From contig NZ_SNUY01000004.1 of the NCBI RefSeq assembly GCF_004376175.1, positions 41,799 through 65,253 of the forward strand: 23,455 bases of DNA, written 5' to 3'. Positions within the stretch are counted from its first letter, which is position 1; each line of letters starts with the position of its first letter. Below the pieces are notes generated by a model. It saw nothing but the letters and a program-made list of their open reading frames with translations, was not told where the DNA came from and did no database searches. The translations under genes and the position numbers were made by a program. The stretch is from Halalkalibacterium halodurans (lineage in GTDB: Bacteria; Bacillota; Bacilli; Bacillales; Bacillaceae_D). Shown here piece after piece: positions 1,873 through 5,148 of the stretch.

Positions 1873-4800
1873 TTACTCTTTAATGGAAGTAAACGCTTCT
1901 TTTACTAGATCATAGGATTGCTTCAGTCGTTCTTCATAGAGGGGAATATCCCACGTTTCCCAAGTATACATGTTCATCACTTCATCCGTCAGACGATCTC
2001 CATCTAGTGCTGGTAGAGCATCAACGACTTGATAAGAGTCATCATCCTTTGGTTCAACAAATAACACCCCTGCACGAACCCCTTCGATGATCTCACTCGT
2101 TTCTCCGCCTTCACCCTCGTAGATAGCCGACATGACCTCACGCTGACTCGGGTCTTTAAAACTTAATAGTAGCCATGGAATGCGGACTTCTATCATTCCT
2201 TTTTCTTCATTGACAAAAAAGTCAGCAAGGGAATCGTAATCATCTGCTTCAGGATCACCATTTCCATGACGCAGTTCTCCTGTTTCGTAGTAACTAAACG
2301 GGATCACTTCATTCGTTGATGGAATACGGATCTCTTGGTTTAATGCATAGTGAATCTTTTGAAACACCCCCGTATTATTTTGAGGCTCAATGGATGTCTC
2401 TTCGATCATTTGATAGATTTGGCTGTATTGATAGGTGAAGAAATCATAATAGGAGTCTACCTTTACTCGCGATTCATCATAGCCCTTCAATTCGATAATG
2501 AAATCAATTCCGTGATCAAAGGTCACACCCTCAACTTCTTTGATGTGCTCATTACCTTGGCCCGGTAAAGTATCTAGCACCAAAATCGGGAATCCATCTT
2601 TAAAGAAATCGTCAGTTGATCCCGACTTCATATCGATTCGGAAATAAAGGTAACGTTCATCGTGATCCATGTACAGCCTCTTCACATACGGGTGATCCTC
2701 TTCATAAAGTAAGGATGCATCCTCCCAGTCTTGATCGTCTCCATTCACTTTCACTTTTAGACGGTCAAAGCTGAGCAAGCCAAATTGCTGCTCATTCGTT
2801 TGAGCATTGGACCAAAAAGGACGACGGTCAGGATTATCGTAATCCATCGTGTTCCATGTGCGTTTGAACCATTCATCCTGCCACGTAAAGATAAGCCCAC
2901 CTAAAAGCTTTTCCTCGATAATATCCTCAAACAATTCGACGACAATTTTCCCTTGCTCCTCTTCTGACAAAAACCCTTGATTCTTCCCAAATGGATTTTC
3001 GTGGGTAAGACCTCTAGATGCTGGAACACCAAATTCAGCGATCAAAATCGGAAGATCGTGAGCATCATGCAAATCCTTCAAATAGCCCGCGTAATTATTC
3101 AATTCACCCCGATGATCCACATAATGAATATAGTCTTCTTCATAATTCAAAAAATCAGGGTAATACGGGTAAACATGATAGGAGGCAAATTGATTGGTTT
3201 CTGTTGCTGGTCCTTTGAGATGAATCACATTCGGATCCACACCGACTAGATCTTCATCTTCGTATGGCTCCGCTGGATGTGTCAACAGATCGGTTGTAAC
3301 CCAGTTTGTAAAGCTGACTGGCCTAATCCAGTTATATTGCTCTATTTCATACGAAAGCAAAATATCAAACTGATTAGCTAGCCAATACTCAAACGGCTCA
3401 GCATCTTTTGTTTCCACATATTTGCCGTCATAATCCCCTATATCAGGATTGTTTTTATTCGTTGCTTTGACTGTGTGAGGATACCACTCAATCCCAATAA
3501 TCCAGCCGATCGTATAGGGGGAAACATCGGCTTGATACACGCCATGGGCATGCCCAGGATTAGGATCCACGACAGCATTTCCATGGATAACATCAACGAT
3601 TCGTTTCATTTCTTGTTGAAACTCTTCATTTGTTTCTTCATCAAACGCATCAAGTGTATCTTCAAGTGGCTCTTCATCGATCCACACGCCATGAAAGAGA
3701 TAAATCGGATTTTCATGCTGTTCGTTATATCGTTTTAACGCATGATAAAAGCCCGGTGGGTGTAGTGTATACACACGGATTGCATTTCCGCCCATCTCTC
3801 CGATTTGTTCAAACCAGCGATAGTAATCTTTTTCTTTAATGGCCGCTTCCCCTGGAAATGTCCCCGGTTTCCCCATCCCGAGGTTAACTCCATGGATTTG
3901 CAACTTCTTCCACTCATCGTCTACGAATACCTCGTAATCTTGATCATTGATTCTTGCCGTATACGCAAGACCATCCTTTTGTGCCACAGCCACCGCTTCC
4001 TCAGGTTCGATCAGAGTTTCAGCAGTGTGCAGCTCAAGGATCGTTTTCATCATTGGCACGTATGTTTTCCAAAAAAAGCGCTCCTCCGAAAAATCATCCC
4101 ATGCCAGCAAAGCTTTTAATTTGTTGATCCCTTTGTATTGATGGACTTTTGGAACTTCTGCAATATCTGTAAAATCACCTGCAAAGTAAAAGCTTCGCGA
4201 TTGGGGACGATCATGTCCAACCACTGCTGCAAACTGAATTGGAAGATCATGCTTCAGAAGCTCCGCTTTCCCTTCATCTGTCAAGTCCCAGTCATAATAA
4301 GCTAGAACATCTTCTTCACGCTCTGCCTCAACGACATCAAACCAGTACAAGTAATTTGGACTTGTAGTCAAATTGAACAGTTCCTGCCCCCGCTCTGTAA
4401 AACTCATGCGAATGCCTTTTTCATTAAAATGTTCCTTTTCGAGCAAAACGACAATTTCTTGAGCCTCCTCATCTACGAGGATAAAACCTGGCCCCTCATA
4501 ATTCCACTCCAAACCTAACTCGTTGTAATGATCAAGCATCCAAGCCGGAATTTCATTGTTTAGTTCATGGTCTAGCTCTTGGAAGTAGCGACCGATCCAC
4601 CCAGAGCGCTTAACGTATAAATATTCACTAACACTGTCACGGACATTCTCCTCAGTTGGAGAAGCAAACGAGTTAAATTCAACGATGAGAGTACTTCGCT
4701 TCTCTTGCTGCAAACGATCATAAATCGTTTGCCATTCCTCCATTTCGAGCCCCCCGTATAAAAGCTCAGAGCGAGTTCCTTCTCGTTCAAGATCGATCCA

Positions 4801-5148
4801 TGGTAAGTCTTCCTCATAGACACCATACGTATCGGCTACGTAGATTACATCCGCATCATCTAACGATTCAGGAAGAGGCTGAACCGAATACGTTTGCTCG
4901 CTTTCATTAGGAACAAACCCATAATAATCAGTCGCCGCGTGATACGATGACCCGTCTTTTTTTTCATACTTATAGCTATTCAAAACCCACGTAATTCCAA
5001 GATGCTCACGATAGGTTTCGTCAGGGACCGTTTTATCGAGAATGGCGACCTGCAATTCCGTCGGCTCCTTTAAATACCATAAAGCAACAGGCAAAAACAT
5101 GAGAAGGAGCAATAAACCGATACTTAACTTAATCAGCAACGCCTTCAT
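1873..5148 (-). CDS. Large membrane-anchored extracytoplasmic multidomain protein with a clan GH-A-like (beta/alpha)8 hydrolase or transglycosylase core; last gene of the EPS operon
   Basis: 1091-aa ORF with N-terminal hydrophobic anchor [26 protein letters not shown]. The central region carries [15 protein letters not shown] (Glu554, 3487-3489), ILIAEFGVP (Glu705, 3034-3036) and [12 protein letters not shown], resembling an acid/base plus nucleophile pair. The protein is very Asp/Glu rich. SD GGAAAGGAA lies upstream of the ATG, 30 nt after the GT2 stop. Confidence 0.6.
   Translation of the reverse strand: [1091 protein letters not shown]

Follow-up and report, generated by a model that had tools for sequence, protein, structure and literature searches.

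The window analysed here is a 23,455-nt stretch of Halalkalibacterium halodurans DNA (assembly GCF_004376175.1, contig NZ_SNUY01000004.1, positions 41,799–65,253 of the forward strand). It contains, at 1873..5148 on the minus strand, the gene for BH2230, a 1091-residue protein that we propose to be the extracytoplasmic subunit of an exopolysaccharide machine, acting as a retaining glycosidase or transglycosylase alongside a membrane protein with HEAT repeats and a processive family 2 glycosyltransferase (GT2). We put the probability of this reading at roughly 0.55. It draws on a clan GH-A glycoside hydrolase (GH) fold with a conserved pair of candidate catalytic glutamates, on the topology implied by a single membrane anchor, on synteny with the synthase gene, and on gene fusions; catalysis, substrate, and contact with the synthase would follow from these as predictions. 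Synthase-dependent exopolysaccharides such as cellulose, poly-N-acetylglucosamine (PNAG), Pel, and alginate are, to our knowledge, the best-understood biofilm matrices, and we know of very few in Gram-positive bacteria.

BH2230 is encoded by an open reading frame (ORF) with an ATG start, and the product is 99% identical to an H. halodurans record named "BH2230 protein / hypothetical protein". A preliminary description of this DNA had been unable to name a family for it. Indeed, the whole protein has no match in Pfam or NCBIfam, and searches of the PDB at E ≤ 10 with the single sequence (phmmer) or with a full-length profile of 119 sequences (hmmsearch) also returned nothing. The same description had divided the protein into three parts, an architecture that is reproduced by an AlphaFold2 model built from 119 homologs (mean predicted local distance difference test score, pLDDT, 89.8; predicted template modelling score 0.85), from which secondary structure was derived with DSSP. 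The three parts are an N-terminal domain, a central barrel, and a C-terminal β-rich domain, preceded by a hydrophobic helix and followed by a short conserved tail.

The central part, residues ~416–790 (2779..3903, minus strand), had been described as a (β/α)8 barrel of clan GH-A, and this is what the model predicts, with eight β/α units at a pLDDT of ~90 and strands delineated by DSSP. The 50 matches listed by Foldseek against the PDB are all members of clan GH-A, from families GH157, GH2, and GH5, with E-values from 4.5e-11 to 2.8e-6. A non-glycosidase fold, which the preliminary description had named as the outcome that would speak against it, is not among them. The best structural match is the endo-β-1,3-glucanase LaGH157 (E 4.5e-11), followed by GH2 β-glucuronidases and a GH5 mannanase. 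A sequence link to GH157 emerged as well: a diverse barrel-only profile, which took in relatives at 37–53% identity, matched LaGH157 (9fz9) with an E-value of 1.8e-4 and 23.8 bits, in an alignment that covers β7–β8 only. In addition, sub-threshold Pfam matches to GH113 and GH72 were found among 41 distant relatives.

The two glutamates that had been put forward as the catalytic pair lie where they had been placed, with codons at 3487–3489 (Glu554) and 3034–3036 (Glu705) on the minus strand; the barrel motif HGVNLG, also noted earlier, occupies residues 419–424. Glu705, the candidate nucleophile, sits at the end of β7 (ILIAEFG), within the modelled strand 701–706. In the profile alignment its segment pairs with PFITTEFGYS of LaGH157, which reads PFITTAFGYS in the E224A mutant chain; since the Glu is replaced by Ala at this very position, Glu705 corresponds to the residue mutated in LaGH157 E224A. 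The alignment also pairs WQDEWFK of BH2230 with ADGWWK of LaGH157 (within FYYADGWWKGG). Glu554, the candidate general acid/base, follows β4 (TIGWII-GIE), three residues past the modelled strand 546–551. Conservation of the two residues, proposed in the preliminary description as a check on its claim, was examined at two depths. Neither residue varies among 119 close homologs, and in the distant relatives (30–45% identity) Glu554 is kept in 40 of 41 and Glu705 in 39 of 41. The accessory residues expected of GH-A enzymes are retained to a similar depth, namely R458 at the end of β2 in the model (39/41), H/Q486 at β3 (41/41), H658 and Y660 at β6 (34/41 and 40/41), and W756 at β8 (37/41).

The protein appears to be tethered at the outer face of the membrane by a signal-anchor helix. 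As noted earlier, there is a single hydrophobic segment, which spans residues 3–21 by Kyte–Doolittle analysis (peak 2.48) and is modelled as a helix at 2–26; we place the transmembrane (TM) helix at residues ~3–26 (5071..5142, minus strand) with an N-in/C-out orientation. The MK(R/K) start of the protein is conserved, and within the helix P20 is kept in 111 and W24 in 117 of 119 homologs. A cleavable signal peptide was considered and ruled out, because the helix is conserved and residues 21–23 are bulky hydrophobics where the peptidase requires small residues at −1/−3, leaving no AxA site. With one conserved TM helix, no cleavage motif, and no cysteine, ~1060 residues are predicted to lie outside the cell. 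The total absence of Cys fits an exported Gram-positive protein, and the median number of Cys in 120 homologs is also zero. Conservation of the anchor further hints at contact with another protein in the membrane.

BH2230 is also hyper-acidic, as had been observed: Asp and Glu make up 19.6% of the residues and Lys and Arg 8.2%, with a net charge of about −125, an isoelectric point (pI) of 4.4, and an even spread of acidity across all three segments. This is not a family-wide property, however, as the pI of homologs ranges from 4.3 to 8.9, and we therefore rule out hyper-acidity as a functional or family feature. Because, in addition, a putative lipoprotein encoded elsewhere in the window (13580–14212, minus strand; 210 residues, signal ending LLAAC, 29.5% Asp+Glu) is more acidic still at pI 4.08, we read the acidity as a trait of the exported proteins of the alkaliphilic host and not of this protein's function or family. 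An acidic surface proteome is usual in alkaliphiles.

BH2230 is the last gene of a minus-strand operon encoding, in order, a REC-GGDEF protein, a GGDEF-like+REC regulator, the HEAT protein, the GT2, and BH2230 itself. The GT2 gene (5179..6627) specifies a membrane-embedded, processive synthase of the PgaC/IcaA-like, QxxRW type, with the motif QRQRSRW, Pfam matches to GT2 and Chitin_synth_2, a TIGR03937 match below cut-off, and BcsA and hyaluronan synthase as relatives in the PDB. The HEAT gene (6631..7665) encodes a single-pass membrane protein (TM at residues 10–28) with cytoplasmic HEAT_2 repeats by Pfam. This association extends far beyond H. halodurans. An exhaustive search gave 2212 cluster representatives at 50% identity for the family. 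Many of these representatives are ~700 residues long and match only residues ~390–1091 of BH2230, and we therefore take the barrel plus the C-terminal domain to be the core module. When one genome per species was scanned, the module turned up in at least 584 species, including Bacillaceae, Planococcaceae, Paenibacillaceae, Clostridia, Izemoplasmatales, haloarchaea, Thermoplasmatales, and a Methylococcus metagenome-assembled genome. Cluster look-ups added Spirochaetota and Syntrophales, where all entries are annotated as "hypothetical" or "TPR repeat protein". By these searches the module spans Bacillota, Deltaproteobacteria, Spirochaetota, and Archaea.

Synteny was assessed in 80 loci from different GTDB species, and in 60 of them a cognate GT2 lies no more than 8 kb from the module. 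The order REC–HEAT–GT2–module recurs in Lysinibacillus, in Lachnospiraceae, and in the majority of the 80 loci, and a HEAT–GT2–module triad is present in Syntrophales and other metagenomic contigs of Gram-negative type, in which the module carries TPR repeats. The partners are also found fused to one another: GT2 to the module (P0215, P0247; L086), the module to a TM helix and HEAT repeats (P0143; L087), and TPR repeats to the module (P0258, P0206, P0245). Judging by the positions of their TM helices, the fusion proteins expose the module extracellularly and keep the HEAT repeats in the cytoplasm. Metagenome contig L087 holds a minimal two-gene form (9001–13715), with a 1099-residue module–TM–HEAT protein followed by a GT2 of 472 residues. 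In some Paenibacillaceae and Eubacteriales, two paralogs stand beside the HEAT and GT2 genes, one a module-only protein of 730–750 residues and the other a full-length protein of 1010–1045 residues (Cohnella L072, 7818–15686; Eubacteriales L078, 26–10028). The full-length paralog, with 27% identity to BH2230, keeps both Glu, and in Cohnella both paralogs do so. The genes linked to the module encode REC-GGDEF, degenerate GGDEF-REC, and HD-GYP proteins (the last, HD_5, upstream of the Eubacteriales operon), on which grounds control by cyclic di-GMP (c-di-GMP) is predicted.

Residues ~28–380 (4009..5067, minus strand) form a domain that the preliminary description had recognised at residues ~30–400 and declared unassignable. 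The domain is real, and it can now be assigned at the level of fold. Modelled separately (pLDDT 86.8) and searched with Foldseek, it resembles the GATase1/ThuA-like α/β fold of carbohydrate-binding module (CBM) family 87, together with a β-rich subdomain. The top matches are to domain B of GH42 β-galactosidases (5e9a, 3tts); the fungal deacetylase Agd3 (6nwz) is matched with an E-value of 3.4e-4, and further matches include 3rht (E 3.4e-3; TM-score normalised to target, TMt, 0.48), 3soz (TMt 0.52), 2gk3 (TMt 0.49), 1t0b, and 4jqs. These are fold-level similarities with modest TM-scores of 0.38–0.52. In line with this, Pfam searches of 27 N-domains at E ≤ 10 gave only noise, and a profile of the domain gave only chance-level matches in the PDB, with Agd3 not among them. 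The N-terminal domain of Agd3, the founding CBM87, has 3RHT and 4JQS as its closest structures, lacks the Cys-His-Glu triad, and binds exopolysaccharide (PMC7229062). The domain of BH2230 likewise has no catalytic triad, and amidotransferase chemistry is excluded because the whole protein is devoid of Cys, while invariant aromatic residues are abundant. We therefore describe it as a CBM87-like, GATase1-fold module for which carbohydrate binding is predicted. Most relatives lack it, and its addition appears typical of the ~1060-residue form found in Bacillota.

The loop that follows β8, residues 761–790 (2779..2868, minus strand), combines high conservation with the lowest confidence in the model. 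K762, T764, W765, N766, T767, D771, R776, W779, S780, Q783, T784, E786, and G790 are all invariant, and the pLDDT is 58–66; the conserved β1–α1 loop, 421–440, also has lowered confidence. Both loops lie on the catalytic face and may stay disordered until they meet substrate or the synthase. Loop 761–790 may act as a mobile lid or as a surface that contacts the synthase.

The C-terminal domain, residues ~791–1062 (1963..2778, minus strand), is almost all β by DSSP with a pLDDT of ~90. The β-rich character suggested earlier for residues ~790–1091 thus agrees with the model. The accompanying suggestion that the region is CBM-like corresponds to a non-significant profile match (E 0.21) over ~50 residues of the CBM9 of Thermotoga maritima Xyn10A (1i82), sharing a DG..W...DE.YLY motif, and the domain is possibly CBM9-like. 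It is followed by a conserved tail, residues 1063–1091 (1876..1962, minus strand), with invariant W1063, W1066, R1074, K1076, and S1078 and a modelled helix at 1077–1087. The tail has a weak profile match (E 0.077) to the end of the barrel of the GH2 β-mannosidase 5n6u. Because the model has no long helix past strand β8 and this last helix is conserved, the tail may return to complete the barrel as its final helix, in which case the β-rich domain would be an insertion before it.

Upstream of the HEAT gene, the operon encodes two regulators. The first gene (9110..10063, minus strand) specifies a REC-GGDEF diguanylate cyclase (Pfam GGDEF, 6e-46, and Response_reg), and many Bacillaceae loci have the same gene ahead of the cassette. 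The second regulator, a degenerate GGDEF-like half plus REC according to Pfam, occupies 7665..9037 on the same strand as two overlapping ORFs, 8051–9037 (with an extra REC-like N-terminus) and 7665–8129. The two frames join smoothly through a 1-nt shift in an A-rich run at ~8135–8150, ctaaaaaaggaaaagaag. In Lysinibacillus and Lachnospiraceae the regulator is one protein of ~290 residues with a degenerate GGDEF-like half and REC (single-gene orthologs in L001 and L003), and this comparison points to a frameshift mutation, an error in the sequence, or slippage in the window. A terminator-like site lies upstream of the operon (10470–10441). Transposase-like ORFs flank the region on the plus strand at 54–1394 and 21834–23336, the former ~480 bp past the stop codon of BH2230 and running opposite to it. 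Between that stop codon and the transposase ORF no terminator-like site was detected, so an insertion sequence may have displaced the original 3′ end of the operon. We also considered, and rejected, a c-di-GMP riboswitch ahead of the operon, as Rfam finds only a PreQ1 riboswitch, elsewhere in the window. The latter (RF00522, 50.5 bits; 17699–17742, minus strand) precedes a queC-queD-queE-queF-like operon at 15254–17577 and is of an ordinary, known kind.

The nature of the polymer can be approached from the synthase and from the neighbouring genes. The best-scoring family for the GT2 is PgaC/IcaA, at a score under that family's cut-off. Its product should be β-linked, given the QxxRW-type processive signature and the BcsA and hyaluronan synthase relatives, and a β-linked product would suit the substrate preference of most clan GH-A enzymes. 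In a Syntrophales contig (L084, 2554–12940), which holds the Gram-negative version of the system, genes for a HEAT protein, a GT2, and a TPR protein are divergent from a CE4 deacetylase gene and the TPR–module fusion gene directly downstream of it, the latter followed by a GH75 chitosanase gene; these neighbours suggest that the polymer may be based on N-acetylglucosamine (GlcNAc) or glucosamine (GlcN). The affinities of the barrel to GH157 and GH72 point to a β-1,3-glucan instead, and neither lead is decisive. A general linkage to CE4 was not borne out, since such genes were found only in Syntrophales, at one Desulfosporosinus locus, and in a separate Lysinibacillus cluster, and are not general in Bacillota. 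The Lysinibacillus cluster (L001, 12649–20107) lies directly downstream of the cassette and encodes a UDP-glucose dehydrogenase, two CE4 proteins, a chitin/hyaluronan-synthase-like GT2, and a GH18.

Among characterised proteins, the closest to BH2230 are the GH157 enzymes (LaGH157, 9fz9/9g4n/9g5g; BcellWH2_01931), which share the clan GH-A barrel, the β7 pattern xxxxEFG, and the β8 pattern W/Y-x-D-x-W-x-K; LaGH157 is the only significant PDB match at the sequence level. GH157 has been described as a surface endo-β-1,3-glucanase, that is, a hydrolase, used for glycan foraging (PMC10229575). The resemblance is nevertheless distant, with 13–16% identity in structural alignments and a TMt of ~0.45. 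GH157 enzymes are, moreover, soluble or lipoprotein foraging enzymes of ~530 residues from polysaccharide-utilisation loci of Bacteroidota, whereas BH2230 is a 1091-residue anchored protein with extra N- and C-terminal modules and a linkage to a synthase. Since neither the single sequence nor the family profile matched GH157, we regard it as a distant relative and not a member. An assignment to GH2, the name given by NCBI to one homolog (P0070), was also rejected: BH2230 contains none of the Pfam domains Glyco_hydro_2, 2_C, or 2_N, and has a GATase1-like N-region instead. Nor was any GH2 domain present among the 25 of 51 Pfam families listed for the 41 relatives.

Other enzymes share parts of the architecture. 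GH42, GH164, and archaeal GH35 enzymes are assembled from the same parts, a GH-A barrel, a GATase1-like domain, and a β-sandwich. However, they are cytoplasmic or soluble, their α/β domain mediates trimerisation, and no sequence relation to BH2230 was found; in GH42 the GATase-like domain follows the barrel, whereas in BH2230 it precedes it. Agd3 (CE18 + CBM87), which deacetylates the galactosaminogalactan of Aspergillus fumigatus, resembles BH2230 in the fold of the N-domain, the missing triad, the conserved aromatics, and the attachment to a catalytic domain that processes exopolysaccharide. No sequence similarity between the two was detected, and the attached domain is a deacetylase in one and a GH-A barrel in the other.

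With respect to genomic setting, BH2230 is comparable to PslG (GH39), BcsZ/PssZ (GH8), the C-domain of PgaB (GH153), and PelA (GH166), extracytoplasmic glycosidases that share an operon with a synthase and c-di-GMP regulators. PslG likewise has the clan GH-A barrel fold and is tethered to the membrane at its N-terminus. For none of them was a sequence or top-ranked fold relation to BH2230 found, and unlike these hydrolases the BH2230 family includes, in some lineages, fusions with the synthase or with HEAT repeats, and BH2230 carries the CBM87-like and β-sandwich modules. More broadly, the synthase-dependent systems Bcs, Pga/Ica, Pel, and Alg all parallel the present one in combining a processive GT2, a co-encoded extracytoplasmic partner, and predicted control linked to c-di-GMP.

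We propose the following model for the machine. The core of a secretion unit would be formed by the membrane HEAT protein, the processive GT2, and BH2230, under the control of REC/GGDEF regulators of c-di-GMP type. The signal-anchor helix would keep BH2230 beside the synthase with ~1060 residues outside, where the barrel would cleave or re-ligate the β-linked chain as it emerges, by a retaining double displacement with Glu705 as the nucleophile and Glu554 as the acid/base. Such processing would determine how long the chain becomes, free the polymer, or unblock a synthase that has stalled. The CBM87-like N-domain and the C-terminal β-sandwich would hold the polymer, and perhaps oligomerise BH2230. 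In this way BH2230 may combine trimming, binding, and scaffold roles, an idea already raised in the preliminary description. The combination is one that we infer, and the conserved synteny and the gene fusions with GT2 and HEAT strengthen it.

Several observations weigh against this reading. Within the barrel, the residue before Glu554, position 553, is I, R, V, L, S, or T among relatives and never a conserved Asn, and an Asn precedes the acid/base Glu ("NE") in most, though not all, clan GH-A families. The assignment of Glu554 draws on its position and conservation, as the sequence alignment with GH157 stops short of β4, and there are further invariant acidic residues in E729, D758, and E759. 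Two metagenomic members have lost candidate catalytic residues while keeping the rest of the module (P0186, with E554→P and E705→S, and P0182, with E705→G). These may be pseudo-enzymes, and they imply that the scaffold can persist without catalysis. Beyond the protein, a GT2 is absent from the 8 kb around the module in 17 of the 80 loci, and because the regulator looks frameshifted and an insertion sequence abuts the gene, the operon may be partly non-functional in the present strain. In the literature library that was searched, BH2230 and the neighbouring locus tags returned crystallography reference codes only, and a system combining HEAT, GT2, and c-di-GMP returned no paper.

The lost glutamates and the tight association with the synthase would both be accommodated if BH2230 were a non-catalytic co-subunit similar to BcsB, which would receive the growing chain at the GT2 pore and guide it across the wall, with the barrel cleft and the flanking modules serving purely for binding and the Glu residues for holding the ligand. 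Like BcsB, BH2230 is a large, anchored, extracytoplasmic partner of a GT2, with α/β (flavodoxin-like or GATase-like) and β-sandwich carbohydrate-binding modules and occasional fusion to the synthase. The near-obligatory GT2 synteny and the GT2 and HEAT fusions indeed resemble BcsA–BcsB more than accessory hydrolases, the conserved P20 and W24 suggest helix–helix contact within the membrane, and the two-paralog operons would allow for a division into a catalytic and a structural copy. However, BcsB, with its CBD and flavodoxin-like repeats, contains neither a TIM barrel nor catalytic residues, and its membrane anchor is a C-terminal helix, whereas BH2230 has an N-terminal anchor and a TIM barrel as its core. 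Neither Pfam nor the fold search reveals any similarity to BcsB, both Cohnella paralogs retain the two Glu, and a full GH-A signature kept down to 30% identity is hard to explain without catalysis. We consider a purely structural role unlikely. For the same reason of missing signals, we rejected equivalence to the ydaJKLMN operon of Bacillus subtilis and the pssA–E operon of Listeria, in which a BcsB-type partner is combined with a GH8, as BH2230 has neither signal; YdaN, which we take to be BcsB-like, and YdaL were compared by description. Listeria PssD has been described as a BcsB ortholog (PMC4125290). The mixed-linkage glucan synthase of Romboutsia was likewise set aside, being BcsA-like with PilZ and having no such partner.

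If the barrel is catalytic, it could instead be a dedicated transglycosylase, which would cleave the chain as it is being made and pass it on to another chain, giving branching or cross-linking, or to a wall polymer, giving anchoring. Retaining chemistry permits transfer, the protein is anchored at the site of extrusion, and the conserved flexible loops 421–440 and 761–790 over the active-site face could form acceptor subsites. The distant members also show weak Pfam matches to the GH72 glucanosyltransferases (best E 4.8e-5), and the GT2–GH-A fusions have a precedent in NdvB, a cyclic β-glucan synthase that combines GH17 with GT2; fungal GH72 and GH17 provide further parallels. Against this stands the hydrolytic activity of the strongest relative, GH157, and sequence cannot separate the two activities; transfer as the sole activity thus seems doubtful to us. 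A role apart from the synthase altogether, as a surface glycosidase that feeds on an environmental β-glycan such as β-1,3-glucan, would be in keeping with the foraging function of the closest solved relative and with those loci that have no GT2 nearby. It is, however, at odds with GT2 and HEAT synteny across phyla and with the gene fusions, and the linked genes include no transporters or sugar-catabolic functions, the regulators being of c-di-GMP/REC type. We regard this as highly improbable, and retain the view of BH2230 as a glycosidase or transglycosylase subunit of the synthase machine.

The family to which BH2230 belongs is large, and it has no Pfam or NCBIfam model, solved structure, or literature. 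The system is a variation on the theme of synthase-dependent exopolysaccharide production and not a new principle. We nevertheless suggest, tentatively, that HEAT protein, GT2, and GH-A module make up an unrecognised class of synthase-dependent secretion system beside Bcs, Pga/Ica, Pel, and alginate, spread over Bacillota, Deltaproteobacteria, Spirochaetota, and Archaea, in which an enzyme of a new GH family is an obligatory structural subunit of the synthase complex, and no mere accessory, and cuts or transfers the emerging chain, a polymer of GlcNAc/GlcN type or a β-1,3-glucan. If true, BH2230 would define a candidate new glycoside hydrolase family of clan GH-A with a defined catalytic pair, and its N-domain would be the second GATase1-fold, CBM87-like module in exopolysaccharide processing. 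Enzymes of this kind would also be potential reagents for biofilm dispersal. The three-gene core, reduced to two genes in some metagenomic contigs, would offer a tractable entry to a polymer pathway in organisms from soil, gut, alkaline, and hypersaline environments, including archaea.

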